DNA from: a virus
Taxonomy: Duplodnaviria; Heunggongvirae; Uroviricota; Caudoviricetes
Strand: one strand, 5' to 3'
Virus record (IMG/VR): IMGVR_UViG_2740892441_000001
Length of the DNA stretch: 64,000 nt
Shown here: positions 2,828-63,263 of the stretch, in pieces
How the letters are laid out: every line of letters starts with the position of its first letter
How positions within the stretch are numbered: position 1 is the stretch's first letter
Translations under genes and position numbers: made by a program
The notes under the pieces: generated by a model
What the model saw: only the letters and a program-made list of their open reading frames with translations
What the model was told of the DNA's origin: nothing
Database searches by the model: none

Positions 2828-2853
2828 TTGAATAACCTTAGATAATTACTTAC

Positions 2854-4110
2854 CTATCGAGAACCACCAAGAATAACACGGTTTTTGACTGGATACCTAC
2901 GATGTACTGGATAGCCCAATGCGTCTGCACTATGCTCAATGCCACCTGTCTTATCCATATCTCGTGTTCCAGGCTTGTAGATGACCTTTTCCAGTGAATC
3001 AATCAAATGCTTGCACTTCGGATCGATATACAGCCGGATATCTCCAGATGCGGTCATCAGCATTCGGTTAACAGCATTAACACGATCCGCAATTGGCGGG
3101 TGCTTTTTCGAATAATCGACACGTAAGAATCCCTTCTCTTTGAATATGTCTACGTCAGACTCCCCGCGAGCATGTTGGCGATAAGCACCTGCCGGATCTG
3201 GAAATACCGTTATCTGTGATTTCCAGCGCCAGAAGCGCCTCTCAAGCTCATCACAAACCTCTGCCGTGTTAGAGGAAAAGAGCACCAATTCATCAATTGC
3301 CCATAGCTCACCATTTGGCTGAGGTTGCAAAATTACGGAAGACATCGGGTCAATGTTGAAGTCCTGTCCTACCCATATAGGCAACCGAGGGTTGAACTGA
3401 AGCGGTTTAACATGCACGTTTCGATCGAACGGGTAGTAAACGCGCCCGGACATATTTTCAAAGCTGGCCAGGTACTCCTGAGCGAACGATTTAGGGTCCA
3501 TATCGTTCTTAGCAGCTTCAATTTCCGCCGTAGGCACAAACGGCGAATCAGCAGTTACAAACTGCCAGCTCTTCCACTGTCCCTTTCTTTGCAGCTCTAC
3601 GTTCTGGCCTATAGTCCACAGTTTGTGAAATTCCGAGAAGCCTTTTGGCGTACCAATGATCAGTGCACCGCCGCGTGTCGATGAAAGAGTAGGTCGTAAC
3701 ACCTTGTACCAGGTGTCAGCCTTCATATCCTGAAATTCATCAAGCACTACAAAATGCAACGCTACGCCGCGCAGAGTGTCAGGTTTATCAGCACCTTTGA
3801 GGGCGATCTCCGAACCGTTCTTCAACACGATTGTCATCGTGGTGTCGTTCTTTTTCCTAACCCACTTACGGGGCAGAACTTCCTGTAGATCGTCCCACAA
3901 AATCTGGCGAGCCATCTGGTAAGTAGGAGCGACATACCAGACCCTTTGCTTTTTTTCCTTTGCCGCCGCACGAATAATAGTGGAGATCGACAACCGGGAT
4001 TTTCCCCAGCGTCGACCAGCACAAACAACTTTAAATCGATGCGGAGACTGGAAGACTTTCATCTGTCCAGAATGCAGTTGCACAAGACTGAGCGAGGACG
4101 GGATTGCCAT
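2854..4110 (-). CDS. terL: Terminase large subunit
   Basis: 418 aa; Walker A-like VVCAGRRWGKS, Walker B-like HFVVLDEFQD, C-terminal nuclease-like region with conserved acidic residues. Confidence 0.9.
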   Translation of the reverse strand: MAIPSSLSLVQLHSGQMKVFQSPHRFKVVCAGRRWGKSRLSISTIIRAAAKEKKQRVWYVAPTYQMARQILWDDLQEVLPRKWVRKKNDTTMTIVLKNGSEIALKGADKPDTLRGVALHFVVLDEFQDMKADTWYKVLRPTLSSTRGGALIIGTPKGFSEFHKLWTIGQNVELQRKGQWKSWQFVTADSPFVPTAEIEAAKNDMDPKSFAQEYLASFENMSGRVYYPFDRNVHVKPLQFNPRLPIWVGQDFNIDPMSSVILQPQPNGELWAIDELVLFSSNTAEVCDELERRFWRWKSQITVFPDPAGAYRQHARGESDVDIFKEKGFLRVDYSKKHPPIADRVNAVNRMLMTASGDIRLYIDPKCKHLIDSLEKVIYKPGTRDMDKTGGIEHSADALGYPVHRRYPVKNRVILGGSR

Positions 4111-4742
4111 TATTCGTCCTCCCCTTCACTTCCATCATCTGTCGCATCAAATTCGCTTAGAGCTTCTTCTTCCAACGTCTCAAGCAATTCGTCATCGATG
4201 ATTTCAGGCTCGTCGTCTTCCTGACGTAATTTCGCCACCTGGGAAGGCGTAAGCTCACCAAATACCAGGTTCGGAATTTCTTCCTCGTCATTTTCCGCAT
4301 GATCCATGCCCAATGCTTTGGACGAAACTTCAAAGCATTTTGCAAGGGTATTACTGGCTCTCTGTAAGCTCTTGAGAGAACCCTCAATCGCCCCTAAAGG
4401 CTTACCCTCACGTTTGGCCGTAGTGACTTCGACCATCACCATCTGCCCCAACGCATACGCCCAGCCGTCATAACGTGTACGACGTTCTTCTATCTTTTCC
4501 GCACGGGCTTTAGCGCGAAGCTCTGCGTCAGATTTAAGAGACTCACGAACCATCTTCCCAACAGAGTCCGCGCCTTTCTCTAATCCTCGCTTTTTGAAAT
4601 GTCTGGAGAGTGTTTCACGACGAATGCCGTACTCTTCCTCCAGCTTTGAGAGTGTATATTCGCCTGACGTCCATTTGGCTTCAGCTTCGGCCCACTCCGC
4701 TGGTGTCAGGCGAGTTTTTACCTCGTCTTTTTCGACAGTCAT
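4110..4742 (-). CDS. Putative terminase small subunit / DNA-binding packaging protein
   Basis: 210 aa immediately upstream of and overlapping terL start; N-terminal HTH-like segment, acidic C-terminus; GAGGGA RBS. Confidence 0.5.
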   Translation of the reverse strand: MTVEKDEVKTRLTPAEWAEAEAKWTSGEYTLSKLEEEYGIRRETLSRHFKKRGLEKGADSVGKMVRESLKSDAELRAKARAEKIEERRTRYDGWAYALGQMVMVEVTTAKREGKPLGAIEGSLKSLQRASNTLAKCFEVSSKALGMDHAENDEEEIPNLVFGELTPSQVAKLRQEDDEPEIIDDELLETLEEEALSEFDATDDGSEGEDE

Positions 4743-4838
4743 AGATCCCTCTAAAACACACAGAGCGCGTCCATGCGCTCTAAAACAACTTGTTTACTGC
4801 ATCTGCTAACCAACTTGTTTTCTGGTGTGTCTAATTAG

Positions 4839-4936
4839 GTCTGGGCATGTCTTACTAAGCCTGCTTCCGTATATATTTAATAAGTTACTTATTATTTATA
4901 TATACGGAAGCAGGTCTTTAAATAACGTCCCAGACC
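4839..4936. repeat. Long near-perfect palindrome (CCTGCTTCCGTATATAT ... ATATATACGGAAGCAGG) with outer GGTCTGGG/CCCAGACC arms
   Basis: Read directly; lies between stop of 4939-5205 gene and the terS promoter region; a second copy of the same arm sequence is at ~35979-36037. Confidence 0.7.
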
Positions 4937-4938
4937 GA

Positions 4939-5205
4939 TTACATCACCAGTAACTTCGCTTTGGCTCGACCTAAAGTGGTTAACCCAAGAGTCCGGCGGT
5001 GATAGCGATTGTCACTGCGTTGGCGCGTATGCCCTTTCTCCACCAGCCCCTTTTTTATCAGAGCGCGAATTGAGAACTGGATACTTTGCTTTGTTGTCTT
5101 GTACGGCAAAACTTCAAGCAATTCGTCCAGATCAAGTAGATGACCTCGCTCATAACCGAGATTGAGCGTTTTGATGATGTCCTTTTGTTTGTCGGTTAAC
5201 GTCAT
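4939..5205 (-). CDS. Small putative DNA-binding protein (winged-helix-like)
   Basis: 88 aa, basic C-terminus; first gene downstream of the 5215-8112 operon. Confidence 0.45.
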   Translation of the reverse strand: MTLTDKQKDIIKTLNLGYERGHLLDLDELLEVLPYKTTKQSIQFSIRALIKKGLVEKGHTRQRSDNRYHRRTLGLTTLGRAKAKLLVM

Positions 5206-6105: not shown

Positions 6106-6767
6106 GAATGGACCTCATCATAACTACCATTGTGATATTCCACCTTCACGCGTTCTTTGTAGTGCTTGGTGATCTGCATATCCGGGCGCAGCGCGTTCTT
6201 CAGGTCTTCGTGAGTCGTCGCCACCATTACCGTCGCACCAACCTTTCGAGCGGCACGCTGGAGGTTAGATGCCACAACCTGAGCGGTTACACGGTCTAGA
6301 ACAGCACCGAACTCGTCAGCAGCCCACACTTTAGCGCCTGACTCAATCAGTTTGGCAATCTTGAGACGATATTTCTGACCGTCTGACATTTCAGAAGGCT
6401 TGCGAACAAACAGATATGCATCGTTCAGACCTGCCATAGATAACAACCCAAGCGCATCACTGGTAGTTTTGCCCAGTTGGTCAATGACGTTAACCTCATT
6501 ATCGAAGGTAAAGTCATCAATAGAAGCTACAGAAAGCCCTTCATCCTTCATCTGGCGTTGCAACTCGCGCAACACAACGGATTTACCTGAACCGGATTGG
6601 CCGGTGATGTACACCACATCGCCCTGCTTCACTTCCAGCTCCAGATTGTCGTAAAGCGTCCACTCTTTTTCGTCCAGGCCAAGCCCGAACGACTCAGCGA
6701 TTTCCAACGTGCGCGTGGTTTTATTTACGCGTGTCTGAAACGATACGTTGATGATGTATTTGCTCAT
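6102..6767 (-). CDS. ABC-type ATPase domain protein (soluble)
   Basis: Walker A GQSGSGKS, ABC-signature-like MSDGQKYRL, Walker B VWAADEFGAVLD, H-loop-like ATTHED. Confidence 0.65.
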   Translation of the reverse strand: MSKYIINVSFQTRVNKTTRTLEIAESFGLGLDEKEWTLYDNLELEVKQGDVVYITGQSGSGKSVVLRELQRQMKDEGLSVASIDDFTFDNEVNVIDQLGKTTSDALGLLSMAGLNDAYLFVRKPSEMSDGQKYRLKIAKLIESGAKVWAADEFGAVLDRVTAQVVASNLQRAARKVGATVMVATTHEDLKNALRPDMQITKHYKERVKVEYHNGSYDEVHS

Positions 6768-7432
6768 GCAGCCATCTCCCCGGAAGAGATCTTCTCCGCA
6801 TATGCCACAAATGCGTCTACCCCGCTTTCTCCCGTCATTTCTTCCATGTGGGCAAGCAAATCACCAACAACAATGGCAGAGCCAGCAGGGAGCGTTTTAA
6901 AGCCCAATACGTCGATAACACGTACTTCTTCCGCTGCAACTTCACGACTGATCTCGGTGTGTTCATCCTTCTGTCGTTTAGTTTCTTCGCCCAGATCGAT
7001 AACTAGCGAGTCGGTGTCCATTTCTTCTGTCATGCTGCCAACGAGAACATTCAACTCCCGCTCTTCAAAGCCGAAAACCTCGATATCGTCCAGAACAAGC
7101 GACTCAAGTTCTTTCTGTAGCTTAATTGCATCGTAATCAATGCTGGCAAGTCGGTTATCTTCAAGGCGCTTCGCACGAACCTCGTCATCACTGAGATCAT
7201 CGCGAACAATAACCGGTACGCGCTCAAGTCCAGCAAAAATTGCAGCCTCACGGCGGCCGTGGCCAGTAATAATTACGTCGTTCTTATCGACCGTAATTGG
7301 CTGGTCAAATCCGCGCTTTTTAATGGCTGCGGCCAGATCTCGGATCTGCTGTTCATCATGCTTTTTGGCATTCATCTCATAGGGAATAAGATCTGCCGGG
7401 TCGCGATATACGATTTCAAACTTTTTGGTCAT
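6764..7432 (-). CDS. ParB-like nuclease domain protein
   Basis: ParB N-terminal-like motif ITGHGRREAA...VPVIV; start set at MTKKFEIVY (ATG overlapping upstream stop). Confidence 0.6.
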   Translation of the reverse strand: MTKKFEIVYRDPADLIPYEMNAKKHDEQQIRDLAAAIKKRGFDQPITVDKNDVIITGHGRREAAIFAGLERVPVIVRDDLSDDEVRAKRLEDNRLASIDYDAIKLQKELESLVLDDIEVFGFEERELNVLVGSMTEEMDTDSLVIDLGEETKRQKDEHTEISREVAAEEVRVIDVLGFKTLPAGSAIVVGDLLAHMEEMTGESGVDAFVAYAEKISSGEMAA

Positions 7433-8112
7433 TACATACACTCCTTGTAGTAGTCGACCAGCCACACCAGAGCCTCACCAGCGTTCTCCATTTCATTACC
7501 GGTGTTAATAGCCTGCTCTTTGATGATGTTTTTTATGGTTTCTGCAACACGATCTGACGCATCGAAAGTTACTTTGAAGCGCATGGTCTGATGTTCCGCA
7601 CCCACACGTTCGGTTTTCTCTCGTTTGTCGGTATCGACAGGCTCATCACTACCACGAGACAACGCCTCCAGTGCTTCAAGGTCGATTGCCGCCTCTTTTG
7701 CTAAAACCATCGAGATTTCGTCGTCATACGGGGCGATTTCAGACAGTTGATAGTCAAGTTCTGACTGAATTTCTTCAATGAAGCGTTGCAATGCGATTTG
7801 GTCGTCTTCACCGTATCGCTCGTTGTCCACTAGTGACATCTGTTTAGCTACGACATCGCTAATTTTGCCCACAGAAAGCACCGGAACCGTTGAAATTCCT
7901 TGCTCAATAGCAGCACGCCAGCGATGTTCGCCGCCGAGGATTTCAAAAAATCCATCTTCAAGTTCACGAGCCAAAATTGGCTTAAAAAAGCCCAATTTTT
8001 CGATAGAACCTTTCAGTTTTTCAAAATTCTGCGCACCAACCGAATTGGTGTTCCAGGTATTCGGGCGAAGGTTGGCAACATCAACCTGCAAAATCGTGAT
8101 TTTTACATCCAT
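7432..8112 (-). CDS. ParB-like nuclease domain protein
   Basis: ParB/Srx signature FEILGGEHRWRAAIEQGISTVPV; first gene of the operon, divergent from helicase gene. Confidence 0.65.
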   Translation of the reverse strand: MDVKITILQVDVANLRPNTWNTNSVGAQNFEKLKGSIEKLGFFKPILARELEDGFFEILGGEHRWRAAIEQGISTVPVLSVGKISDVVAKQMSLVDNERYGEDDQIALQRFIEEIQSELDYQLSEIAPYDDEISMVLAKEAAIDLEALEALSRGSDEPVDTDKREKTERVGAEHQTMRFKVTFDASDRVAETIKNIIKEQAINTGNEMENAGEALVWLVDYYKECM

Positions 8113-8194
8113 TTTATTGCTACAATCAACTAAGTAATTACTTACTTATTATAATAGCCAAATAACATACAAAAGGCACTAAGGAAAGAGGTTT

Positions 8195-10035: not shown

Positions 10036-10177
10036 CATTTCACATTCCCTCCATCCGCCAATTCCAAGATGTGCTTACTTGTAAAAGGAGCACATCAATT
10101 GATGTGGCAGAGAATGAATTTAATCAAGACAAACATTGAATGATTAATAGACTACGATAGTGTCCAACAGGGCATTC

Positions 10178-10200
10178 TCATGTGACATTTGTCACATTTT
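10178..10200 (+). terminator. Rho-independent terminator-like hairpin (CATGTGACA..TGTCACATTTTT)
   Basis: Perfect inverted repeat followed by T-run, downstream of 9757-10035. Confidence 0.5.
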
Positions 10201-10287
10201 TAACCGCATAAGTCTCCGGCTGAAAAAAGTTCTTGATTGGCTGAATGATATTTGTAGGCTTATCAATGTTTAGAGCCGGAGGTGTGA

Positions 10288-10830
10288 ATGGGTGTACTTG
10301 ACATTGATAGTAATTACTTAAGTGCAAGGCGAATAAAGGAATGTGTTCATATCTATTGTAAATCAAAGCAGTCTTGTTTAGAAAAGCAGGCGTACCTAAC
10401 ATCTTCTCAAAAAGGAGAGCACAAACTCATCAAATATAAACTAAAGGCTTCGCGCAAAGATCGTTATGAGCACTATATATATGTAAAGGATATTGAAGGC
10501 ACCAAGACAAATTGCGGTATTATCTTTTATCCCTATGATATATCAAGACTGTTCTCCATTATGAAATCCTGTGTCGGCGTAGCTCCAGGTAAATTAGAGT
10601 TGCATTCAAACTTATACGATTACCCAAATGCTCAAAAACAGATAAACGATAGCACTTCGCCCTATGGATTTTCGTTTCTCTTTAAGAATCATCTCGCATT
10701 GAAAGATTTCATCGAAAAATACAATGAAGGAATAATATCAGGCGAATTAAATTTCAACAAAATCTGCGGAGATATAAAAAGGGACGACCTCTTAATAGAT
10801 ATTTACAATAGAATCCAAGTTAACGTGTAA
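10288..10830 (+). CDS. Hypothetical protein (low-GC accessory gene)
   Basis: 180 aa ORF, AT-rich codon usage distinct from neighbours. Confidence 0.5.
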   Translation: MGVLDIDSNYLSARRIKECVHIYCKSKQSCLEKQAYLTSSQKGEHKLIKYKLKASRKDRYEHYIYVKDIEGTKTNCGIIFYPYDISRLFSIMKSCVGVAPGKLELHSNLYDYPNAQKQINDSTSPYGFSFLFKNHLALKDFIEKYNEGIISGELNFNKICGDIKRDDLLIDIYNRIQVNV

Positions 10831-10857
10831 CCATCCATTAATCATAGCCAGACAAAT

Positions 10858-11277
10858 ATGAAAGTAACAAACCTAATTATTCTGACACTAGCCACATCAC
10901 TAATTGGGTGTTCATCTTCATCTATATCTGTTTCAAAGGCAAAGTATGCGCCTCAAAGCAGAATATTTAAATATCAAACACCACATGAGTCTAGTCTAAC
11001 AATAGTTAGAGACAAAGGGCTGGTTGGTTCTGGATGTAACGCTTCCATATTCATCAATGGAGAAACGGCAGCAAAATTGGAACCTGGTGAAAAAGCAACT
11101 TTCTATCTTAATGAAGGAGATTGGATCGTTGGGACATCAATTGAAAGTTCAGGTCTTTGCGCATTTAACCCCTCTAGGATGGAGCGAGAAATAAAACTAA
11201 AGCAAGGCGACGCGAAAACATATCGGGTTTTCACTACCTGGGATGGTACAATGGATATATTGCCAACCACTTTATAA
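10858..11277 (+). CDS. Putative lipoprotein
   Basis: N-terminal signal peptide MKVTNLIILTLATSLIGCSSS with lipobox LIGC. Confidence 0.6.
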   Translation: MKVTNLIILTLATSLIGCSSSSISVSKAKYAPQSRIFKYQTPHESSLTIVRDKGLVGSGCNASIFINGETAAKLEPGEKATFYLNEGDWIVGTSIESSGLCAFNPSRMEREIKLKQGDAKTYRVFTTWDGTMDILPTTL

Positions 11278-11806
11278 TGATATGACGACGAAAGACATCA
11301 CCTACGGTGTGCCAGCAGAAGTCTGGCCTCGAGATTACACTAACGTTGAAAAACTACTGATGTTCTGGCGCAGAGAACAAATTCCTGTAAGGGCCACTCT
11401 AGAAGATGGCCAGGCGTTTTGCATGTACGTTTATGGCCTCATGCCATCTCGTAACAAAGTTGACCTTTGCCCAGCCCCTTTTGACAAAGAAAATCGTATA
11501 AGGCTCCCACTTGAACGCATTAGTACAATTGAATCAGGTGTGGTTGACAGTATCGCTCACGATTTCAAAGGTCGATTAACAGTTCACCCTGATTATGTCG
11601 ATAATCGGCCATCACGCCGCGATTTTTTTGCTATTTGCAACCAAGCCTATAAAGCAAACAAATCTATAAGGGTGTACATGGCGGATGGCCGTGAAATTGA
11701 GGGGGTGTCAGCAGGCGCAGATGCTTGTCAGGTTACACTACGTGTCGAGAACGGTAGAAAAATAGTTATTTTGTTCGATTGGGTTGAACGAATTTTGCCT
11801 TTTTGA
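11243..11806 (+). CDS. Hypothetical protein
   Basis: 187 aa ORF; true start may be the internal Met at ~11281. Confidence 0.45.
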   Translation: MVQWIYCQPLYNDMTTKDITYGVPAEVWPRDYTNVEKLLMFWRREQIPVRATLEDGQAFCMYVYGLMPSRNKVDLCPAPFDKENRIRLPLERISTIESGVVDSIAHDFKGRLTVHPDYVDNRPSRRDFFAICNQAYKANKSIRVYMADGREIEGVSAGADACQVTLRVENGRKIVILFDWVERILPF

Positions 11807-11809
11807 GTT

Positions 11810-12118
11810 ATGAAATCGATATTGTTACCACCATTATTTTTACTTTGCTCAGTTGCAGCAAATGCAATGGACTATAAGCCTGTCATTCAGTCGCTGATGA
11901 ATGACGTGTGCTCAACGTCTCAGAATGTATCAGTTTGCATGTATCAATTTTCGGCAGCCGTAAAAGCAGGAAAAGCGATAGGTGAGAATGTGGAACTGTG
12001 TAAGAAAGTGGCAAATGAAGAACGAGCAATGTTGGATTGCGAATCTAGCGAGTCATCGGCACAGTTCGTTGATGCGCTATTTGACACCAATCGTAAGGCT
12101 GTAGAGTCTGTCCAATAA
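11810..12118 (+). CDS. Small secreted protein
   Basis: Signal peptide MKSILLPPLFLLCSVAANA; 102 aa. Confidence 0.55.
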   Translation: MKSILLPPLFLLCSVAANAMDYKPVIQSLMNDVCSTSQNVSVCMYQFSAAVKAGKAIGENVELCKKVANEERAMLDCESSESSAQFVDALFDTNRKAVESVQ

Positions 12119-14852: not shown

Positions 14853-15134
14853 TTAGTGGAGCAGACCGATGTCGATGGTATCCCCTGAATCCCCCACACG
14901 GATCATCAGCATGGCGAAGGCGTTTAGTGGATAACTGGCGTGCCATTCAGGGAAGCGGTCATCTCGCATGAAGTCGGCAATGTCGTAAACGCAGCCCTCA
15001 AAGTGGAAGAATCGCGTGCTTACCTGCTCGTCATATTCCACATGATCCATTTCTTGCTGTTCTGTTTCCGGCAAGTCCAGCCATGATTCAAGGAATACAT
15101 TTTGTGCTTTAGGGGTAATGGTGAAATCAGTCAT
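14853..15134 (-). CDS. Hypothetical small acidic protein
   Basis: Start reassigned to internal Met (MTDFTITPK...) because the conserved promoter element lies inside the longer ORF; RBS GAGGATA. Confidence 0.5.
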   Translation of the reverse strand: MTDFTITPKAQNVFLESWLDLPETEQQEMDHVEYDEQVSTRFFHFEGCVYDIADFMRDDRFPEWHASYPLNAFAMLMIRVGDSGDTIDIGLLH

Positions 15135-15469
15135 GAGCATATCCTCACTGCGTAAACATATTGTTTTCTTGTTGGTGTAATTATCGCAGTGTAGATAAGG
15201 CATAAAAGAAGTTAATACAGGCTGAATACACAAGAAAGGTTCTGGAAGTTGATAGCCAGGTTTCAAACTAACCTTCGGTTATTAAAAGTCATTTAAGACC
15301 ACCAATGCTGGTGGCCTTAATAATTATCGCCCGATTACGCTAAGGATCTTTTCCTCAACTGATTTGTTGTTGCGACTAAACTGCCTTGCGTATCTGATGA
15401 CAGAAGAGGCGTTTTGCTTTCTGACCATCTCGGCTCTTTCCTTCAGGCGTTTCTTGAAATCGCCCATAT

Positions 15470-16382: not shown

Positions 16383-16508
16383 TTCACTCTCCGTAGTGTA
16401 TTGGTTATTTTTATATTCTATGATCGTAAGTATGTACTTACAAAACAAAAAAGCCCCGTAAGGATGGCGGGGCTGTCGTACTGTCGACTAATTACCACTT
16501 GCACATTA

Positions 16509-18500: not shown

Positions 18501-18866
18501 TTATGCCTGAAAATAAGTTGTTTATATGGTTATGTAACGCAACGGGAACGATTTTGAGCGTGTGTTTTTGTTGGTAGTGTGTTGGGTCGTCTGTGGTGAA
18601 AATTGGACGCTGTGGCGCTGTCTGCTGCGTAGGATTGCGGGTATAAGAAGTAATGTGTGAAAACGTCAATTTTTTAGACCAAATCGGGTGAAAGCGTTGA
18701 CGTTTCGTTGATCTGTTATTCAGTTGTTTTCTTGTTTGTATAAACAACTATAACCTATTGATATTTAAGGGTGTGATTGCAGGTATGGAAGGGGAGTAGT
18801 GGCGATCAACGGATTCTTATAGAAAAGAATCAAATTGTGACCGCCATTATCAATAAGTTGCAACCG

Positions 18867-24150: not shown

Positions 24151-24160
24151 GGAGGGGTGC

Positions 24161-51558: not shown

Positions 51559-51784
51559 GTGTTTTTCCTTTGTGGTTATTTTGATACAGATATTAAGTGT
51601 GTTTGAGAGGCGAACAATCCAGATAACACGGCCATTAAGAATGTTCACAGACACATGATTATGGCAAATTCATAGGTAAGTGAATACCTATTTTTATGGG
51701 CAACAAAGATTTCTAGATGTTACAAGCCACTCTATAATCGCAGTCACTTAATGATGACAACCAAACGAAAAAGGAGAACTGACG

Positions 51785-52288
51785 GTGAAACGCGTAATTA
51801 TAGGGACGATGGCCATTGCTCTGATCGGATGCGTACCAAAACCACCTCAAGATGAAAAGTCAGCTGGCGGGTACGTTGATATTTACTCCACTTCAAGCGT
51901 AGCAATTGCCCAAGACAGAGCCGACAAATTGTGTGGAAGCCATGCCTATTATGTCTCTAACGACAATGATTTAACCAAAGTCATGGGTAGATACGCGCCT
52001 TCATTCCCAAAAATCAGGTTCAACTGTGATCTTGAAATGGCCGCTTATCTGGGCAGCAAAGAGGCAAAGGAGATCAAAATGAAACGCATAGAGGAAGCCT
52101 ACAAGGAGATGTACAAGGCCCAATATGAGCTGAAAGAAGTGCGCCGTAAGAACGCTGATCCGAAGAAGCTGGAGTCTTACACAGAACGCGATCCGGACGG
52201 TACTATTCGCAGCTACAGCTTCTTGAATGGCAAGTCGTGCGAATCAATCGTGTACCCAGACGGCACGGGCAAAACGACTTGTGATTAA
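51785..52288 (+). CDS. Putative lipoprotein
   Basis: Signal peptide MKRVIIGTMAIALIGC with lipobox; RBS AAGGAGAA; terminator downstream. Confidence 0.6.
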   Translation: MKRVIIGTMAIALIGCVPKPPQDEKSAGGYVDIYSTSSVAIAQDRADKLCGSHAYYVSNDNDLTKVMGRYAPSFPKIRFNCDLEMAAYLGSKEAKEIKMKRIEEAYKEMYKAQYELKEVRRKNADPKKLESYTERDPDGTIRSYSFLNGKSCESIVYPDGTGKTTCD

Positions 52289-52290
52289 TT

Positions 52291-52325
52291 CTTCAGGAGC
52301 ACCTCGTATGGGGTGCTTTTTATTT
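52291..52325 (+). terminator. Rho-independent terminator (GCACCTCGTATGGGGTGC + TTTTTATTTT)
   Basis: Hairpin and T-run read directly. Confidence 0.7.
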
Positions 52326-52760
52326 TGGGTCGCGAAACAGCATGTCGGCCATTTGCGAGGATTTGACGTAGCACTTTGCCATCATCGGCTGACTAGGGTT
52401 TGATGCGATCATGTCGGACACCAGCATTGACCCATAGCCTTTTCCGCGAAGCTCTTTGACAATACTGACGGCACGGAGTTCAAGTCAAGGTGCGCCAGTC
52501 GGATCGAGTGCGGCACAGAACCAGATTAGTCCTACTTTTTGTCATCAGAACGATGCAGCAGGATGTAGATAAAATGCCCGGAGTATTGGCCCCGCTCGTT
52601 CGTCTTGATTGCCAGTCTGGTCTGCTGCTCAAAGGTTTTACCCCCCCTTTGATGTGAGGATCTCTTCGTAGAAGTGACCTTTGCGTGCGCCGTCCTCGAA
52701 CTCAGCCATGATAAAAGGCATGTCTGTCACAGTTGCTGCCCTTGAATAAAATTCACTCAT
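52326..52760 (-). pseudogene. GNAT-family acetyltransferase remnant with multiple frameshifts (one at a C9/G9 homopolymer)
   Basis: Hand translation gives MSEFYSRAATVTDMPFIMAEFEDG..., then in other frames ...VSIVKELRGKGYGSMLVSDMIASNPSQPMMAKCYVK... (GNAT motif A); homopolymer at ~52644-52652. Confidence 0.5.
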
Positions 52761-52816
52761 GTATTAATCCTAAAAGCCCTCAGTGTCTTTCTAATGCACC
52801 ATATTTTATGCCTCGG

Positions 52817-53479
52817 TTAAACCCTGAGATTACGTTTAAAACGTCTCAGTGGCTTTTTACGCGCTGCGTTTATGCTTATGACGCCAGCTTTTGGACGTGG
52901 GTCAACAAGGTTAAGCTCTTCTTCGCTGTGGTATTCGAGGTCGAACTCACGTTTTACATGTCTGATGTAGATTGCGGTGAGCAGGCTATCTTTGGTCAGA
53001 AAGTGTCCGTAGGATTTGCGGATCACTTCTTCTACCTTCTCGATTTTCTCACCACCCATACAGAGATGATTAAACCGGCTGTGTTTCCGCAACATTTCGT
53101 CTACTGGGCCTGAGTAAACCTTGTCTACTTTCCCAAAACGGATGATTTTCCCTGTGTCTGCGGATACGAGGCAAATCAGCTTGTCTGGTGATAAACGATC
53201 TCGCCACGTCACACCTGAACGGAGTGTGTTGAAGTAGGGCGCATCCAATCCGATGATCGGTTTACGAAATGCGAGCAATGGAACGTACCTGATACAACTA
53301 TTCAAATGAAAGTTCACACCAGCCTTATCAAGTTTAATTCTGGTTTCGTAGATCGGGCACTTCGCCGCTATACCGCAGATATCACAAAGTAACTTCTGCT
53401 TATTCAGGTTGGAATTTGATTCGATAGTGTAGGAGCCGTCCTCAAGACGACGAACCCAGCGCGTGCGTTTTAGATCCAT
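52817..53479 (-). CDS. Hypothetical protein
   Basis: 220 aa ORF with Cys pair CDICG; no family recognised. Confidence 0.5.
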   Translation of the reverse strand: MDLKRTRWVRRLEDGSYTIESNSNLNKQKLLCDICGIAAKCPIYETRIKLDKAGVNFHLNSCIRYVPLLAFRKPIIGLDAPYFNTLRSGVTWRDRLSPDKLICLVSADTGKIIRFGKVDKVYSGPVDEMLRKHSRFNHLCMGGEKIEKVEEVIRKSYGHFLTKDSLLTAIYIRHVKREFDLEYHSEEELNLVDPRPKAGVISINAARKKPLRRFKRNLRV

Positions 53480-56490: not shown

Positions 56491-56529
56491 GATAGGTAGA
56501 TACTAACTTATATAAATTTTACTGTAAAC

Positions 56530-56805: not shown

Positions 56806-56860
56806 GTGTTTTTCCTTTTGTGGTTAGTGTTTACTTATTTTGTTAGTTATGAATAGGCGA

Positions 56861-58412: not shown

Positions 58413-58471
58413 GTGTTTTCCTATGTGGTTATTGTGTGCTAATGATAAGTAAGTACTTATACATTTTCAAC

Positions 58472-58505: not shown

Positions 58506-60845
58506 TTAATCTTCTAGTTCTTCTGTTGGTGATGTCTTCTCTCGTCGGTCATCTATCGCCTGTAACGCAGCAATGATTTCAGCCAGTGGCTTCTCCCGAT
58601 ACATCTCGACGATCTGCGATTTGGTGTATTTCTTGTCACCAATTTCAACTCTCCCGCTGGCGTTCTTTGGCAGGTATCCTTCTTCCAGCATGTACTCGAC
58701 GAGCGATTCGATAACGTCGAGGCCACGAGTAGGATCGAAGTAGAATTTCCAGGTGCATTTGCCATACGGTGGTGCAACTTTGTTTTTGATGCACTCTGCG
58801 CCTACGTCCTGACCGATCTTCTCTTTCCCATCCTTCATCACCGATGCACCGAGACGGATGCGCACAGAAGCGTAAAACTTCGGTGAATCGCCGCCTGGAG
58901 ACGTAGTAGGGTCGCCAAACATTACACCGATTTTTGTGCGAACCTGATTCAAGAAGATGATGCAGGCGTTGTATTTGCGTGCCCACAAAGCCAGAGTAGG
59001 GAAGTTCGCACTCGTCGCACGCGCCAGTGCCGTATTGTCGTTCATGTTTAGCTGATCTTTGTCTTTGGCTGTGCCTTCAGCCATCTTTTCGAACTTCTCG
59101 GCTTTGGAGTTCGGAACCATAGACGCAAGAGAGTCAGCCACGATACAGATAGGTGCTGATTCGGGGATAAGCTCTTCATCACGAACCAATTTAAGTATTG
59201 TGCCGATCAACTCTACAGAGTCTTCGAAGGTATCTGGCTGCTTGTATACCCACTGACCGTCATCCTCATCTGCATTCAAACCATTGGCTACAGCCAGGCC
59301 AACGTCAAAACTGTTTTCATGATCGAGGAATACCGCCAGACCATCTTGTTTTTGAGCGGAGATCATCGCTGCTGTTGCAAGGAATGTGTTGTGGCTGATA
59401 ATCCCGTTAGACCAGAAAGAGTGTGTTTCCGGCATCGCTACGTCGAACGTTGGTGCTTCACCTTCCTCAATAGCCACGACTTCGTCGTAGAACAAGTTAG
59501 AGCCAATTACCGCTGCCAGTTGTGCAAACAGATGCTCGTTAAAACGATTCTTTCTGCCAATGAAGGAGACATAGATTTCTCGCAGTTTGTCTATTCCGAC
59601 ACGATCGCCGCGGCCAATAACGTGGTCTACCAGAGCGTAGTCTTCACGGGTGGTCTTGGTGAGCGACTCGTAGAGTGATTTCACTAAGCCGCTGATGTGC
59701 GGAACATAGCCTGAGTAAGTGCGGTCAAAACCAATGTCCCGTTTGGTTGCCACTGATAAACGTGCCGGAGATTCGAAACCAATCGTTGACAGAAAAAGGT
59801 CGTAATTAGAGCCACTGAATGACAGCCGGTAATATGTATTTTCATAACCCGCGACGTGTTTTTCAGAGATAGTTGACGTAATCCCCAGATTCAGGAGCAT
59901 GAGGCGAATTTGCTGTAGCAGCAGCCCACTCGCGCTCACAACCTCAATGCAGCGACCATCATTGACGTGGCATTCCAGCTCAAAGTAGCCGCGAAGGAAT
60001 GCAATTTGAGCCTCGCTATTGGCGCGACGCACACTCAACGGAACCTGCTTGCCAGCAGCTTTCTCATACTCCAGACCATATTCTTTAAAAAGCAGCGAAC
60101 GCACCTCTTTGCTAAACAGCACATGGTCTTCCGAGCCGTTATGTTTTCTCGTAACTGGCATCTTGTCTGATACCAGCGAAATGAGGCGGTAGTACTCATC
60201 CTTGATGAAAGGATCTGTGTTAGAAAAATTCACTGAATTTTCAGAGGCCACGTATCCGTCAGCAATTAAATAGCCCATCAGTTTTGCGATATTGGCATCC
60301 AGGTGCTGATCGCCGAATTGATGTGTGCCAACCATTGAAGGAATCGTGTCGCCTACACTGATTTTTTCAGCATGTCGCCAGACGACATTACCTAAGTCGT
60401 CAACCACACGGATTGGGTGACGGAACGTAGCCTCGATATAACCGCCTGATGCCAGCTTAATACGCTTGAATTTGCGACGGTTGTTCCATGTCAGGTGTGA
60501 GGTCTTCTCTATCACGCCATTTTCATTGATGAGTCCAACGTTATGCTCTACATCGCGAGTAGTGCATGTCGCTTTGTACCCTTCAATCTCAAACAACTCT
60601 TTCACTGTTACCATTCCACGCTCCGTCAGCAGCATGGTGTCTGCGGTAACACATTTCCCCGCACTTGGAGGACCGAATACTTCGACGATACGACCACATG
60701 GGAAACCGCCATCGTAACGACCGGAAATCGCTTTGTTTAACGGAGGAAAGCCTGTGTCAATCCAATGAGTTACTTTCTGAATTTCGTCGTTGCTACCGAT
60801 TTTCTTTTTCAGAGCAAGTGCCAGTGCGGATTTTCCTTTTGCCAT
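58506..60845 (-). CDS. RecA/UvsX-like recombinase containing an intein in the Walker A P-loop
   Basis: 779 aa; extein reads FGPPSAGK | C...(422 aa)...SHN | TFLATAAM; removing residues 65-486 leaves ~357 aa, RecA-sized. Confidence 0.88.
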   Translation of the reverse strand: MAKGKSALALALKKKIGSNDEIQKVTHWIDTGFPPLNKAISGRYDGGFPCGRIVEVFGPPSAGKCVTADTMLLTERGMVTVKELFEIEGYKATCTTRDVEHNVGLINENGVIEKTSHLTWNNRRKFKRIKLASGGYIEATFRHPIRVVDDLGNVVWRHAEKISVGDTIPSMVGTHQFGDQHLDANIAKLMGYLIADGYVASENSVNFSNTDPFIKDEYYRLISLVSDKMPVTRKHNGSEDHVLFSKEVRSLLFKEYGLEYEKAAGKQVPLSVRRANSEAQIAFLRGYFELECHVNDGRCIEVVSASGLLLQQIRLMLLNLGITSTISEKHVAGYENTYYRLSFSGSNYDLFLSTIGFESPARLSVATKRDIGFDRTYSGYVPHISGLVKSLYESLTKTTREDYALVDHVIGRGDRVGIDKLREIYVSFIGRKNRFNEHLFAQLAAVIGSNLFYDEVVAIEEGEAPTFDVAMPETHSFWSNGIISHNTFLATAAMISAQKQDGLAVFLDHENSFDVGLAVANGLNADEDDGQWVYKQPDTFEDSVELIGTILKLVRDEELIPESAPICIVADSLASMVPNSKAEKFEKMAEGTAKDKDQLNMNDNTALARATSANFPTLALWARKYNACIIFLNQVRTKIGVMFGDPTTSPGGDSPKFYASVRIRLGASVMKDGKEKIGQDVGAECIKNKVAPPYGKCTWKFYFDPTRGLDVIESLVEYMLEEGYLPKNASGRVEIGDKKYTKSQIVEMYREKPLAEIIAALQAIDDRREKTSPTEELED
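59388..60653 (-). mobile_element. Intein (422 aa) with LAGLIDADG homing-endonuclease domain inside the recombinase gene
   Basis: N-terminal Cys after GPPSAGK, C-terminal His-Asn followed by Thr; LAGLIDADG-type motifs LMGYLIADGYV and IAFLRGYFELE. Confidence 0.8.
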
Positions 60846-61120: not shown

Positions 61121-62108
61121 TACCTTTCGAATGGAAGAACAAACACTTCAAGGTCTTCAAGGAACGAACGGAAATTCAGCTCGTAGCACAGTTGCTCGAA
61201 TGCTTTCACGTCACGATTGCCTTTGATTGTTTCGATTTCGGTAGGCGGAAACTTCGTCTCAATCAGGTTCATTAGCGTGATGTTTCTCTTGAACGCTTCG
61301 AGCATTCGACAGCCTGTTTTCTCGTTGAAGGCATTCTTCGCTAGTTTGTTGAAGGCGGTCTTATGGCGTCCTTTGTCAACCACGATTGAGCCGTCGTTGA
61401 TGCCGCGTACCATCGTTGCGACACTTCCCCATTCATGCAGCAGCTCTTTCGCACCGCCAGCACCAATGCCACCAACACCGCTAATGTTGTCCGATTTATC
61501 GCCTTGTAATGCTTTTGCTTCCAAAAATGCGCGAGGAGTAGCGAATCCTGTCAGCTCCGCAAATTGCTCAAAATTAACCTGCTTGTTTTTGGCGTCTTCG
61601 CGCAGGCTTACCCAGCTTACGTTTTCGCGAACTAACTGAAGCCAGTCGCTATCGCCTGTTAACAGATAGATGTGTTCAACGGTTGGCTGCGCTGCCATGC
61701 GGGATACCAGCAGCCCGGCCAGATCATCCGCTTCTGCATCTTTTGCAATGAGTTGGGTAACTCCAAGCGCGGTCATCATTTTGAGGATGTATGGCTTCTG
61801 GATAGCAAAGCCTTCCTTCATCTTTTTCATATCAGGATCGTCGTCGCGATTTGCTTTGTAGTCCGGGTAAAAGTCGCGACGCTTGTCACTAAATCCATCC
61901 CAAAGAATCATAGGTCGGGCATGGAGGATGGAGGCATAACGACGGACGTTCTTAACAAAGCCGAAAGCAGCCTGTACTTCCATTTCGCCGTTGTGCAATT
62001 TGTCAGATTGTTGGTGGTAATAACCCAGCTATTGCCATCTACGAAGAGATAATTCACCGGTACATTCCTTCCAAAAAGTAAGGCGTCCGTAGACGCCTTA
62101 CTGGTCAC
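61114..62108 (-). pseudogene. 5'-3' exonuclease / flap endonuclease (FEN), N-terminus in a different frame (frameshift near 61990-62000)
   Basis: ORF 61908-62108 encodes ...YLFVDGNSWVI (FEN N-terminal motif); ORF 61114-61998 carries KDAEADDLAG and GDKSDNISGVGGIG (helix-hairpin-helix). Confidence 0.75.
62072..62098 (-). terminator. Rho-independent terminator (AGGCGTCTACGGACGCCT + TACTTTTT)
   Basis: Hairpin plus T-run after SSB gene. Confidence 0.7.
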
Positions 62109-62117
62109 GTAATGGGA

Positions 62118-63146
62118 TTACAGAGAGTCCAGCTCTCTCAGTAGGTCATCCAGACCTTCATCTTCCGTCGCAGATGCGGCTGCTACAGATGTCGCTGCGA
62201 CTGCTTCAGACTCTTTGACTGATACTGCAACGGCAGCGGAACTTGCTTCTGGTTTAAATTCAGTTTCAACGGCACGGAGGATTTCTTCATCAACCAGACT
62301 GGTTGGTTCAGAAGCCGGTGTGTGCGCGGTTGCTACAGCCGTCGCTCCTTCTGTATGACCAGTGACAGAGCCAAATCCAGGTAGTGCCGCAGCCGATGTT
62401 TTCGCGGTTGAGGAAATTGCTGGTGCAGATGCTGCGGCAGTTGGTGCAGCGATGCCAATCAGACGACCCATAGTGCGAACTGTCGACAGAAGACGAGTTT
62501 CATCAGCCTGATTTGCGTATGCGATCAGATCATGCTGGGTGTTCCAGAATTTATCTTCGATATCGCCTTTGTAGACTTTACGCTTAGGCGAGACGTCATA
62601 TTTGGTATCGCGACCAGAGCCAGTACGTTTAATCAGGAATGCGTAGCCTTCCTCTTTGCTCAGTGGATTGCCGATATCATCAGCGATGTCTTCGGTGATT
62701 GCTTTGCAGATATCATCGAATACAGTAGACGGCAGCTCGATTAACTGGCATTTCTCAGCATCTGCGAAATCCTCACGAGCAGAAAGAATGCCGTTGACCA
62801 GGTAGCGAGGAGTGGCACGCATTTGACCGATGCGTTCTTCCATTGCTTTGTTACCCTTGTGACGAGCGCGACCTTCCATCACCATTTCGCATAGCTGACA
62901 AGCGCGACCGTGAGTATGTTGCTCACAAATATAAGCGTTGGTTGCTTCTTTACCTTCCTCGTTCTGATACTTAACGTAGTGCATACCGAAAGTCTGGAAG
63001 AACTTACCGTTTGGGTCGTCTTTATTCGGGAAGATGCGGATATAGTTGACGCCGTCTTTTAAGCGAGTCAGATCAACGTTGTTGCCACGTTTGGCGGCAA
63101 TGTCTTCACGAGTTTTGTTAAGCAAATCAAGTAATGTCTTAGACAT
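62118..63146 (-). CDS. Single-stranded DNA-binding protein, T4 gp32-like
   Basis: His/Cys cluster YICEQHTHGRACQLCE consistent with gp32 zinc site; Ala/Ser-rich linker; acidic C-terminal tail EDEGLDDLLRELDSL. Confidence 0.65.
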   Translation of the reverse strand: MSKTLLDLLNKTREDIAAKRGNNVDLTRLKDGVNYIRIFPNKDDPNGKFFQTFGMHYVKYQNEEGKEATNAYICEQHTHGRACQLCEMVMEGRARHKGNKAMEERIGQMRATPRYLVNGILSAREDFADAEKCQLIELPSTVFDDICKAITEDIADDIGNPLSKEEGYAFLIKRTGSGRDTKYDVSPKRKVYKGDIEDKFWNTQHDLIAYANQADETRLLSTVRTMGRLIGIAAPTAAASAPAISSTAKTSAAALPGFGSVTGHTEGATAVATAHTPASEPTSLVDEEILRAVETEFKPEASSAAVAVSVKESEAVAATSVAAASATEDEGLDDLLRELDSL

Positions 63147-63263
63147 GTGTTTCTCCTTGTTGTGATTTGGCCGATGGCGCTATGCGCGTTGGGCTTTCGT
63201 TCATTCGTGGCTCTTTCGAGCTGTTAAATGATAGATCAGTACTTACTTATTATCTATCAAAAA

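Follow-up and report, generated by a model that had tools for sequence, protein, structure and literature searches.

A palindrome dispersed through the intergenic gaps of SSU5/pHCM2-type phage-plasmids is probably an operator of their immunity repressor

On the IncP plasmid RK2, one global regulator, KorB, acts through a palindrome, OB, that occurs at 12 dispersed positions. Streptomyces phage phiC31 is reported to carry many intergenic copies of a conserved palindromic operator of its c repressor, the CIR (work attributed to Ingham et al. 1994 and Wilson et al. 1995), and these reportedly lie at the repressor gene and near promoters and terminators. In the phage-plasmid P1, one master repressor keeps lytic functions off through about 22 dispersed operators (PMC8546580). 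Mycobacteriophage L5 and other Cluster A phages have 20-30 stoperators genome-wide, bound by the gp71 repressor, of which few are true promoter operators and most sit in short intergenic gaps; the stoperator consensus is lineage-specific and diverges together with the repressors (PMC6550527). The P1 C1 operators, the L5 stoperators and the phiC31 CIRs appear, by analogy, to be the closest counterparts of the dispersed palindrome described here.

The window, a stretch of 64,000 nucleotides, comes from a phage-plasmid of the SSU5/pHCM2 type and is about 98-99% identical to Escherichia phage Cyrano (pLF82), whose annotated genome is 86.8% coding. The full phage-plasmid genome measures ~108 kb and has the palindrome in ~25 intergenic gaps, 13 of them in the window. 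An earlier note on this DNA had described a recurrent intergenic palindrome, distinct from an AACAA..TTGTT element and existing in a 20-bp and a 16-bp form. Its recurrence, intergenic position and distinctness are all borne out, and the two forms are one motif, whose family consensus is the perfect 20-bp palindrome ATAGGTAAGTACTTACCTAT; the Klebsiella consensus is this same sequence, a palindrome without mismatch. The window holds 13 strong copies against 0.05 expected. The sequence ATARGTAAGTRANTACYTAT, with up to 3 mismatches, gave 18 strand-hits (0.05 expected; none of 100 shuffles was that high), and the 16-mer pattern 27 matches against 0.9 expected. All window copies but one (1332-1351) stand between long ORFs, and 25 of the 26 copies in Cyrano are intergenic (binomial p = 2e-21), so that the motif is far from equally frequent in coding or shuffled sequence. 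Each half of the palindrome matches the half-site consensus independently, the motif as read carries stop codons in two or three reading frames, and the window-specific insertions hold no copies. The strong copies are the following.

1332-1351: ATAAGTAAGTACTGACTTAT, within the portal gene at its 3' end, with the next gene ~100 nt downstream; makes up the 17-bp spacer between the promoter-like hexamers TTGAAA (1357-1352) and TATGAT (1334-1329) on the minus strand; same sequence in Cyrano, SSU5, pJN2-26 and pMT1.
2838-2857, minus strand: ATAGGTAAGTAATTATCTAA, between terL and the portal gene, holding the terL stop codon (2854-2856), with the portal ATG (2827) 10 nt beyond; no recognisable promoter; counterparts in syntenic positions of relatives.
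8130-8149: between two divergent genes, one for ParB_N (minus strand, start 8112) and one for the UvsW-like helicase (plus strand, start 8195); TATAAT-like hexamers adjoin it on both strands (8148-8155).
16426-16441: variant copy GTAAGTATGTACTTAC, with a terminator hairpin (16474-16452, minus strand) just upstream in gene direction; overlaps the promoter-like TTGTAA-17-TAGAAT (16443-16415, minus strand); syntenic with Cyrano 96690, SSU5 93165 and pJN 28031.
29485-29504: TTAAGTAAGTATTTACCTAT, adjoining the DUF4942 stop codon; next ATG (29442) 42 nt downstream.
34453-34472, minus strand: GTAAGTAAGTGTTTACCTAT, holding the stop codon of an RNase H-like gene (34469-34471), then TATCAT.
36664-36683: ATAGGTAAGTAAATACCTAT, the best copy in the window, with the ATG of the adenine methyltransferase (36652) 11 nt downstream; its first two bases are also the last two of the promoter-like TTGCCA-17-(TG)AAAAAT (36710-36682, minus strand).
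42279-42298: core palindrome ATAAGTAATTACTTAT at 42283-42298, flanked by a terminator (42370-42352, minus strand) on one side and by the thyX start (42267) on the other.
46988-47007, minus strand: ATAGGTGAGTGCTTATCTAT, 8 nt past the RuvC stop codon; spacer of TTGATA-17-TAACAT (47010-46982, minus strand), followed directly by a terminator hairpin (46981-46960) and then nrdA.
51672-51691: ATAGGTAAGTGAATACCTAT, with the SbcD-like gene ~113 nt downstream; syntenic with Cyrano 63199 and SSU5 63080.
56492-56511, minus strand: ATAAGTTAGTATCTACCTAT, with a small ORF 1 nt downstream; the motif contains TAGTAT, preceded at 17 bp by a conserved TTTACA (56528-56500, minus strand), and an unusual T at motif position 7 is kept in 5 lineages; RNA-seq step-up of 3.65 log2 at the Cyrano equivalent.
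58443-58464: core ATAAGTAAGTACTTAT at 58445-58460, directly after a terminator (58500-58481), with an ATG (58412) 32 nt further on; fills the spacer between the hexamers of a near-consensus promoter, TTGAAA-17-TATCAT (58470-58442, minus strand); kept in 4 lineages; RNA-seq step-up of 3.6 log2 at the Cyrano equivalent.
63231-63250, minus strand: ATAAGTAAGTACTGATCTAT, between the uvsY-like and gp32-like SSB genes; spacer of TAGATA-17-TATCAT.

Three weak copies accompany them.

4880-4899: ATAAGTTACTTAT..., degenerate and of doubtful significance, between a small wHTH gene (4939-5205, minus strand) and terS; PWM score 14.7.
35624-35643: AATAGTTTGTACTTATCTAT, PWM score 15.5; syntenic with Cyrano 78477 and SSU5 78709.
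56819-56838: TGTGGTTAGTGTTTACTTAT, PWM score 14.9; syntenic with Cyrano 59072 and SSU5 57746.

Eight of the nine positions given in the earlier note fall within a few bases of these copies. The ninth, 16405-16425, was ~20 nt off: nothing resembling the motif stands there, and the actual palindrome is at 16426-16441. Four strong copies (1332-1351, 34453-34472, 46988-47007 and 56492-56511) were missing from that list, as were the three weak ones. Placement at ribosome-binding sites and start codons, which the note had proposed generally, fits the five of 13 window copies that end within about 20 nt of a start (portal 10 nt, Dam methyltransferase 11, ThyX about 11-15, ParB_N 17, small ORF 1) and not the rest. 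The copy assigned to a recombinase lies downstream of a RecA-like gene, that assigned to a methyltransferase touches the stop codon of the DUF4942 gene, and the SbcD copy is more than a hundred nucleotides from its start. Copies inside operons are often 0-18 nt past a stop codon. Early-type and late-type genes alike are preceded by copies, which also occur within the structural gene cluster.

The same syntenic gaps are occupied in Cyrano (about 25 copies), SSU5 (26), Klebsiella pJN2-26 (23-29) and Yersinia pMT1 (16), and are shared even by lineages only 70-80% identical. Between lineages, the motif arms are 84-92% identical, versus 67-71% for the 40-nt flanks. In two distant Acinetobacter relatives, the same positions are taken by ~30 copies of variants specific to the lineage, ATCAGTCAGTACTGACTGAT and ATTAGTAAGCGCTTACTAAT. 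The enteric elements have the half-sites ATAGGTAAGT and ACTTACCTAT, NZ_CP155459.1 has ATCAGTCAGT and ACTGACTGAT (31 copies vs 0-3 in shuffles), and pDD520 has ATTAGTAAGC and GCTTACTAAT (26 copies in 86 kb). In these variants both arms of the consensus are altered symmetrically, across all copies of a genome; the enteric and Acinetobacter lineage 1 motifs differ at 3 of 10 half-site positions. Outside the palindrome family, 596 Gb of genomes yielded single chance hits only.

Several copies overlap conserved sigma-70-like promoters, and the register varies: the motif may form the spacer, contain the -10 hexamer or lie downstream of it. At many copies the -35 hexamer is poor or absent, and some have no recognisable promoter. 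The promoters conserved across 4-5 lineages are TTGAAA-17-TATYAT, TTTACA-17-TAGTAT (-10 inside the motif), TTGCCA-17-AAAAAT, TAGATN-17-TATYAT and TTGATA-17-TAACAT. A near-consensus promoter calls for repression, not activation, and it is typical of operators that the register varies. Part of the overlap stems from the motif's own composition, since its flanks are AT-rich with -10-like hexamers on both strands (42/70 sense, 37/70 antisense). In the LF82 lysogen, CYRAN_45 is expressed and genes downstream of copies are at background (PMC9928086 Table 1, supplementary file 2). Exceptions are the UvsW-like operon, moderately expressed despite a copy in its promoter region, and gene 34, which is expressed although a degenerate copy precedes it. 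After 6 h of stress in macrophages, the plus-strand units with the strongest induction start at copies (genes 46, 60-62, 56-57 and 12-13); an overall induction test of the genes directly downstream of copies was not significant (p = 0.088). Ordinary terminators account for several of the drops in expression at copies.

The operator of a dimeric regulator, one of two functions suggested in the earlier note, is supported by the symmetry of the motif, its synteny, the symmetric changes between lineages and the overlap with promoter hexamers. We consider it fairly probable that the palindrome is a double-stranded DNA operator for a single dimeric regulator of the phage-plasmid, dispersed over ~25 gaps and keeping lytic genes off. 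In the plasmid state, this regulator would hold off genes for replication, recombination, nucleotide metabolism, structural proteins and lysis. Where a copy lies at a sigma-70-type promoter (in the spacer, at the -10 or at the start site), the bound protein would occlude RNA polymerase; copies inside operons may act as roadblocks or insulators, like the mycobacteriophage stoperators.

Most likely, the palindrome is bound by the Xre-type HTH protein encoded beside the integrase, CYRAN_45 in Cyrano, and by its homologues, and the site is probably the dispersed operator of the immunity (lysogeny) repressor of the phage-plasmid, a role for which the CYRAN_45 family is our candidate. The gene lies outside the window. 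A variant copy, GGTAAGTRCTTACCGAT, stands 29-30 nt upstream of it and is conserved in Cyrano, pJN2-26 and pMT1; homologous genes are preceded by four copies within ~950 bp in NZ_CP155459.1 and by two within ~800 bp in pDD520. The putative Xre recognition helix differs in all three motif lineages (KNANNLSLIKSGK, KRPNVLSMIKSGE and NQNMVSFIVRGK). However, identities among enteric Xre proteins span 48-100% while the motif is almost constant, which counts against the assignment and would be unusual for immunity repressors. The Xre HTH protein, the small wHTH protein and two ParB_N proteins co-occur in the enteric and Acinetobacter elements, so that phylogenetic profiling separates none of them. SSU5 has no Xre gene; its flanks are 99% identical to Enterobacter plasmids that have a ~6-kb block with an integrase and the regulator, and SSU5, going by its sequence, is a recent deletion derivative from which the Xre gene is gone.

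The other function suggested earlier was a translation-control hairpin, that is, an RNA element, located in a 5' UTR or between cistrons, with control over translation, termination or the stability of the mRNA. The five copies close to start codons and the folding of the sequence into a 7-8-bp hairpin (-4.6 to -6.6 kcal/mol) would suit it, as would the FljA-like protein (PF03614) encoded by the phage-plasmid, of a family that we take to be RNA-binding translational repressors. However, pairing covariation does not exceed column composition: arm pairing is 81.8% against 81.4 +/- 0.8 in shuffles (179 of 500 equally high), positions 4 and 17 vary independently (Fisher p = 0.44), and permuted half-sites in four genomes yield p values of 0.39-0.90. 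On the sense strand, G-U mismatches (37) and A-C mismatches are equally common, the antisense strand has 39 G-U mismatches, and asymmetric copies are mixed in their orientation relative to genes. The lack of compensatory covariation and of strand bias fits a double-stranded site read by a dimer, not an RNA hairpin. Moreover, the stems are AT-rich and weak, a search of Rfam gave no match, most copies are nearer to the stop codon that precedes them than to the ribosome-binding site that follows, and the Acinetobacter elements have their ~30 copies although they lack the FljA-like gene. The covariation tests largely refute an RNA-level role, which we regard as very improbable. Still harder to credit is a repeat that is selfish or neutral (REP- or MITE-like), or an accident of composition without any regulatory function. 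A short AT-rich palindrome restricted to intergenic DNA might look like one, and its own stop codons disfavour coding DNA; yet the excess over chance, the shared gaps in diverged lineages, arms better conserved than flanks, the genome-wide symmetric changes, the absence from window-specific insertions and the near-absence outside the family all speak against it.

An activator that binds the palindrome and turns on weak lytic promoters is unlikely, if the least so of these alternatives. The candidate would be the small winged-helix protein encoded just upstream of terS (CYRAN_123 in Cyrano), whose gene is present in every motif-family lineage, SSU5 included, and is itself stress-induced; P1 late promoters that depend on Lpa have a palindromic element and offer an analogy. 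The poor -35 hexamers, the stress-induced units that begin at copies and, in the spacer class, a palindrome centred ~20 bp before the predicted start point the same way. However, the variable register is ill-suited to a class-specific activator, copies precede early-type and late-type genes alike, and the best-conserved promoters, near consensus (TTGAAA-17-TATCAT) with optimal 17-bp spacers, should fire unaided. The enteric lineage and Acinetobacter lineage 1 have different motifs but nearly the same wHTH recognition helix, and no copies cluster at its gene, whereas copies are present at the Xre gene. Loading or binding of the ParB_N proteins, for KorB-like long-range silencing, partition or genome organisation instead of classical operator control, is improbable. 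Both genes (7432-8112 and 6764-7465) are conserved in all motif-family lineages, a copy precedes the first of them by 17 nt, and KorB of RK2 provides a parallel. However, the ParB_N domain is all that Pfam detects, with neither an HTH nor a KorB DNA-binding domain, expression of both genes does not rise above background in the lysogen, ParA and a small partner protein for partition are encoded separately, and a tight overlap with promoter hexamers is not expected of loading sites.

Returning to the operator for one dimeric regulator, its likeness to described systems differs from case to case. KorB OB is likewise a dispersed palindrome on a plasmid, and ParB-family genes occur here too; unlike the present motif, OB measures 13 bp, is often remote from promoters and is recognised by an HTH-containing ParB protein, whereas Pfam shows no DNA-binding domain in the ParB_N proteins here, which are silent in the lysogen. 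The P1 C1 operators match in number and genome-wide spread. However, they are 17-bp and asymmetric (ATTGCTCTAATAAATTT, with no match in the window at up to 3 mismatches), they control early functions and the late activator Lpa whereas copies here also lie in the structural gene cluster, and the candidate binder here is an Xre-type HTH protein. The L5 stoperators share copy number, intergenic placement, often at stop codons, and lineage-specific variants; they are 13-bp, asymmetric and mostly in one orientation to transcription, whereas the motif here is symmetric, its imperfect copies are mixed in orientation and many overlap promoter-like hexamers, and the hosts and phage type are unrelated. 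Although the phiC31 CIR is 17 bp long and differs in sequence, repressor family and host, and phiC31 integrates and has no plasmid state, the CIRs are, by analogy, the closest formal match: a palindrome with many intergenic copies, one of them at the repressor gene.

The 20-bp palindrome that recurs between genes of the window is real, conserved and probably functional, and it most likely constitutes the operator network of the immunity system in SSU5-type phage-plasmids. Sequence alignment identified the window as a large part of a phage-plasmid of the SSU5/pHCM2 type, in reverse complement. It is 95-99% identical to Escherichia phage Cyrano (pLF82, OV696614.1) over Cyrano positions 4877-1 and 108379-51910, a few insertions specific to the window excepted, and the annotation of Cyrano (gene numbers CYRAN_n) was used as the gene guide. 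Nearly all genes lie on the minus strand, in a single direction. Six stretches gave no alignment to Cyrano (blastn, E below 1e-20); judged by this alignment they are insertions or diverged segments, and none of them holds a copy of the palindrome:

10097-12116
18854-19811
24030-24904
25826-28264
37982-39148
51598-52845

Two genes are split by single-base deletions relative to Cyrano, the portal gene at ~1639 (ORFs 1592-2827 and 1254-1622) and nrdA at ~45870 (ORFs 45734-46942 and 44628-45860), which may be assembly errors or real pseudogenes. The RecA-like ORF (58506-60845, minus strand) encodes 779 aa in the window and in Cyrano versus 358 aa in SSU5 and pMT1, and may contain an intein or another insertion.

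Nine places had been cited for the palindrome in the earlier note. At eight of them the motif was confirmed, offset by no more than a few bases; nothing motif-like is present at 16405-16425, and that copy is found at 16426-16441, 20 nt further right. Four strong copies (1332, 34453, 46988 and 56492) and three weak ones emerged in addition from pattern and matrix scans, and the 20-bp and 16-bp forms described in that note are one element. An operator set dispersed over a genome is expected to comprise more than 10 copies, far above chance, and these should be intergenic, either at promoters or separating the genes of lytic operons. The window has 13 strong copies for 0.05 expected, 12 of which lie between long ORFs, and conserved sigma-70-like hexamers are overlapped at no fewer than six loci. 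Both comparisons that the earlier note had proposed, with coding regions and with shuffled sequence, favour the element: 25 of the 26 Cyrano copies are intergenic in a genome that is 86.8% coding (p = 2e-21), and the 20-mer pattern gives 18 strand-hits in the window versus 0.05 expected, with no shuffle coming close. The description 'next to start codons' fits only about 5 of the 13 window copies, since the distance to the preceding stop codon is often shorter than that to the following start. Of the Cyrano copies, four coincide with or border on a stop codon and another four follow one at a distance of exactly 8 nt; the window contains three of the former and one of the latter. TAG or TAA triplets occur in two or three reading frames of the palindrome. 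The stop codons of the window that it supplies or touches are:

2854-2856, stop codon of terL
34469-34471, stop codon of an RNase H-like gene
29504-29506, stop codon of a DUF4942 gene

The number of copies per genome ranges from 16 to 31 across six related elements, with ~25 in Cyrano, 26 in SSU5, 23-29 in the Klebsiella phage pJN2-26 and 16 in Yersinia pestis pMT1, located in the same syntenic gaps. In the structural cluster, these gaps are after terL, at the 3' end of the portal gene, after the capsid gene, after the tail genes and before the holin; further syntenic copies are found ahead of replication, recombination and nucleotide-metabolism genes. The pJN2-26 consensus is a perfect 20-bp palindrome, ATAGGTAAGTACTTACCTAT, and the centre of the motif is more variable in the E. 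coli lineage. Comparison of orthologous copies across lineages gives 84-92% identity in the arms against 67-71% in the 40-nt flanks. In IMG/VR the exact palindrome was found at 39 loci, every one of them SSU5-like, and a search of species-representative genomes (596 Gb) gave only 13 isolated matches in unrelated organisms, which are due to chance; in this set the palindrome is not repeated outside the SSU5-like family.

Two Acinetobacter lineages carry their own forms of the motif. NZ_CP155459.1 has 31 intergenic copies of ATCAGTCAGTACTGACTGAT, versus 0-3 in shuffled sequences, and pDD520, of the second lineage, has 26 copies of ATTAGTAAGCGCTTACTAAT within 86 kb, both at the same kinds of gap (e.g. 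between terL and portal, between the divergent helicase and ParB_N genes, and after the capsid gene). Wherever these motifs depart from the enteric one, both arms show the mirrored change in every copy of a genome, the signature of an altered half-site specificity.

The earlier note had considered either a dimeric-regulator operator or a translation-control hairpin plausible. These two possibilities were discriminated with a set of 70 copies from three genomes, all in sense-strand orientation. An RNA element, be it a translational operator or a terminator hairpin, should show compensatory pairing and wobble pairs on the sense strand only. However, the variable mirror positions 4 and 17 are independent (Fisher p = 0.44), and G-U mismatches are as frequent on the sense strand (37) as on the antisense strand (39). 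Paired cells amounted to 81.8% versus 81.4 +/- 0.8 in shuffles, 179 of 500 shuffles scoring as high (pair-count tool). Moreover, when half-sites were randomly re-paired within a genome, complementarity was the same as in the real copies (p = 0.39-0.90, four genomes). This indicates that each half fits the half-site consensus by itself, as predicted for a symmetric dimer bound to double-stranded DNA and not for selection on a hairpin. The predicted hairpin is also weak (-4.6 to -6.6 kcal/mol) and an Rfam scan gave no match. The structured-RNA reading, including translational control, is thus rejected and the dimeric operator is retained.

Consensus scans and five-lineage comparisons revealed sigma-70-like hexamers conserved around several copies, in differing registers:

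58470-58442, TTGAAA-17-TATYAT, palindrome forming the 17-bp spacer, directly after a terminator
copy at 63231, TAGATN-17-TATYAT, palindrome forming the 17-bp spacer
47010-46982, TTGATA-17-TAACAT, palindrome forming the 17-bp spacer
1357-1329, TTGAAA-17-TATGAT, palindrome forming the 17-bp spacer
56528-56500, TTTACA-17-TAGTAT, -10 hexamer inside the palindrome
36710-36682, TTGCCA-17-(TG)AAAAAT, -10 hexamer just upstream of the palindrome

At 56528-56500, the -10 hexamer is created by a conserved deviation from the motif, a T at position 7, and the arrangement at 36710-36682 places the start site under the palindrome. Such near-consensus promoters with optimal spacing would be independent of an activator, and operators typically vary in their register relative to the promoter. 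We rejected the possibility that a directional -10 element is fused to the motif, since the flank logo is nearly symmetric and -10-like hexamers (TAnnnT) occur at 42 of 70 copies on one strand versus 37 of 70 on the other. The overlap with promoters is therefore owed in part to the composition of the motif, and the AT-rich flanks are more plausibly the outer portions of a longer symmetric site than evidence of promoter direction.

Four Cyrano loci, one of them in the window, share the layout of a stop codon followed after exactly 8 nt by the palindrome, and in at least three of the four a GC-rich terminator hairpin comes 5-7 nt after the palindrome:

47016 stop codon, 47007-46988 palindrome, 46981-46960 hairpin (window)
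Cyrano 5443
Cyrano 9022
Cyrano 15529

A far-reaching reading of this layout, which we consider improbable, is that the entire 100-kb genome is assembled from a reusable 'transcription-unit cassette' with the palindrome at its core, and that the palindrome forms a two-letter regulatory code together with a second one, AAACAANTTGTTT. The cassette would be a symmetric operator, both ends of which double as -10 hexamers (TATYAT in enteric elements, TAATAT in pDD520). Upstream read-through would be terminated at the hairpin; the -10-like hexamer predicts a start site within the 5' arm of the adjacent hairpin, so that, speculatively, cassette-born transcripts would escape the terminator. In a possible variant, a ParB-CTPase-type protein would read one of the two elements.

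The second palindrome is also intergenic, with 14 copies in the window versus 0.53 expected (13-mers at 4783-4795, 4808-4820, 14669, 15154, 16832, 17316, 18511, 20124, 20175, 24111, 32834, 33563, 44553 and 57303), two copies lying just upstream of terS. Cyrano, SSU5 and pJN2-26 have 17-20 copies each and pMT1 has 6; in the Acinetobacter relative only chance-level matches were found. AAACAANTTGTTT is unrelated to the 20-bp palindrome, which agrees with the earlier view that the latter differs from the AACAA..TTGTT element, and it may mark a second regulon. The window encodes at 11288-11803 (plus strand) a homologue of CYRAN_114, with 78% protein identity, inside the stretch 10097-12116 that does not align by blastn. 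CYRAN_114 matches the Pfam family 'repressor of phase-1 flagellin' (FljA, PF03614, E = 1e-80) and weakly an Hfq-like family; FljA is an RNA-binding translational repressor. As the FljA-like gene and AAACAANTTGTTT are both missing from the Acinetobacter element, they might be partners.

Several proteins, of the element or of its host, could recognize the 20-bp palindrome. A host transcription-factor site was rejected because the consensus shifts with the phage-plasmid lineage, and to our knowledge no E. coli transcription-factor site matches it. A phage sigma factor was rejected as well, as a sigma-70-family gene is present in the Acinetobacter lineages only and a palindrome is unsuited to sigma recognition. 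This gene lies between a cobS-like gene and dnaE (pDD520 15101-15766; homologue at NZ_CP155459.1 19412-20080), and no homologue was detectable in the enteric elements or the window. Five enteric candidate regulators, the FljA-like protein (PF03614), CYRAN_37, a Cra-like protein, an S24 peptidase and CYRAN_43, have no detectable homologue in NZ_CP155459.1 and are unlikely binders, since this element retains the motif family. Phylogenetic profiling leaves four proteins that co-occur in all lineages: the Xre-type HTH regulator encoded beside the integrase outside the window (CYRAN_45), the small winged-helix protein (window 4939-5205, minus strand, just upstream of terS) and two ParB_N proteins. 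Homologues of CYRAN_45 are found on 995 PLSDB plasmids, Yersinia pestis pMT1 being one; the set also includes ~110-kb Acinetobacter plasmids that are syntenic phage-plasmids.

We favour the Xre protein as the candidate binder. It is the regulator expressed in the lysogen, and its putative recognition helix is different in each of the three motif lineages. Copies also lie upstream of its own gene or homologues in enteric and both Acinetobacter lineages, as expected for autoregulation or an immunity region: outside the window, a conserved variant copy precedes the Xre-HTH gene by 29-30 nt in Cyrano, pJN2-26 and pMT1, and the homologue is preceded by four copies in NZ_CP155459.1 and by two in pDD520. 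The ParB_N proteins are less favoured because Pfam detects no domain for DNA binding in them and they are not expressed in the lysogen, and the recognition helix of the winged-helix protein is almost unchanged in two lineages with different motifs. Each of the three motif variants is paired with a different HTH helix; yet enteric repressors that are 48-100% identical share one motif, and other regulators co-diverge too. What counts against the Xre assignment is that enteric Xre proteins are only 48-66% identical while the motif is essentially unchanged. A comparison of enteric backbones with divergent repressor alleles (OW968253.1, CP133154.1), on which the motif is essentially unaltered, does not discriminate between binders. 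SSU5 keeps the copies and has no Xre gene. Comparison of SSU5 41776-42761 with Enterobacter plasmid NZ_CP134672.1 3429-9443 shows that a ~6-kb block (PhoH, Gp49, glutaredoxin, toxin, integrase and Xre regulator) is missing between flanks that are 99% identical, so SSU5 looks like a recent repressor-less deletion derivative. PDB sequence searches with two candidate regulators returned no informative relatives.

Per-gene RNA-seq values for Cyrano were taken from a study of strain LF82 (PMC9928086, supplementary file 2). The genes expressed in the lysogen are CYRAN_45, toxin-antitoxin genes, the parA operon, repA and a few others, and the genes that immediately follow copies do not rise above background (PMC9928086). 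In macrophages at 6 h, induction among plus-strand units is strongest for gene 46, which adjoins the immunity-region copy, and for genes 60-62, 56-57 and 12-13 (PMC9928086 data). Each of the four starts at a copy, with steps of +2.5 to +3.65 log2 across it, which fits promoters located at copies and normally held off. Global expression tests were weak (p = 0.036-0.09) and many copy-linked genes were still silent. Step analysis over copy-bearing junctions revealed step-ups at a subset of copies only. Large step-downs at some copies are explained by ordinary terminators. Outside the window, Cyrano 31158-31220 forms a long near-perfect hairpin followed by TTTT after the parA operon, with a degenerate palindrome in its loop, and expression falls up to ~200-fold across this junction in the lysogen.

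The palindrome is a symmetric protein-binding site on double-stranded DNA tied to promoters and gene boundaries; beyond this, we infer how it works. An immunity-repressor dimer would occupy ~25 palindromes and occlude RNA polymerase at promoters, copies inside operons may block elongation or simply mark unit boundaries, and plasmid-maintenance genes, having no site, would remain on. Binding and repression at the copies are predictions to which the LF82 RNA-seq data lend indirect support. Phage-plasmids of the SSU5/pHCM2/pMT1 type are common in clinical Enterobacteriaceae and Acinetobacter, and resistance genes have been reported in relatives; very little has been described of how these elements control lysis and lysogeny. 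The motif provides a testable regulon map of ~25 operators, points to a candidate for the repressor and distinguishes three or more operator 'immunity types'. From these, cross-immunity and incompatibility among such plasmids could be predicted, and they offer a means of inducing or curing the plasmids.

We found no description of this motif in the searchable literature. Dispersed operators are not a new principle, being known from P1, L5 and phiC31, and such sets, each bound by a master repressor (P1 C1 operators, L5 stoperators, phiC31 conserved inverted repeats), form the nearest functional class, although the element is a strict member of none. The conserved inverted repeats of phiC31 are palindromic and intergenic, and one is also found at the repressor gene. 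P1 C1 binds 22 asymmetric 17-bp operators (PMC8546580), whereas the present site is a 20-bp palindrome, and the C1 consensus ATTGCTCTAATAAATTT has 0 matches in the window with up to 3 mismatches. L5 stoperators number 20-30 per genome and are 13-bp, asymmetric, oriented and lineage-specific (PMC6550527), whereas the present motif is symmetric and its imperfect copies occur both ways relative to genes. What sets the element apart from all three systems is a 20-bp palindrome that is orientation-free and belongs to another phage group.
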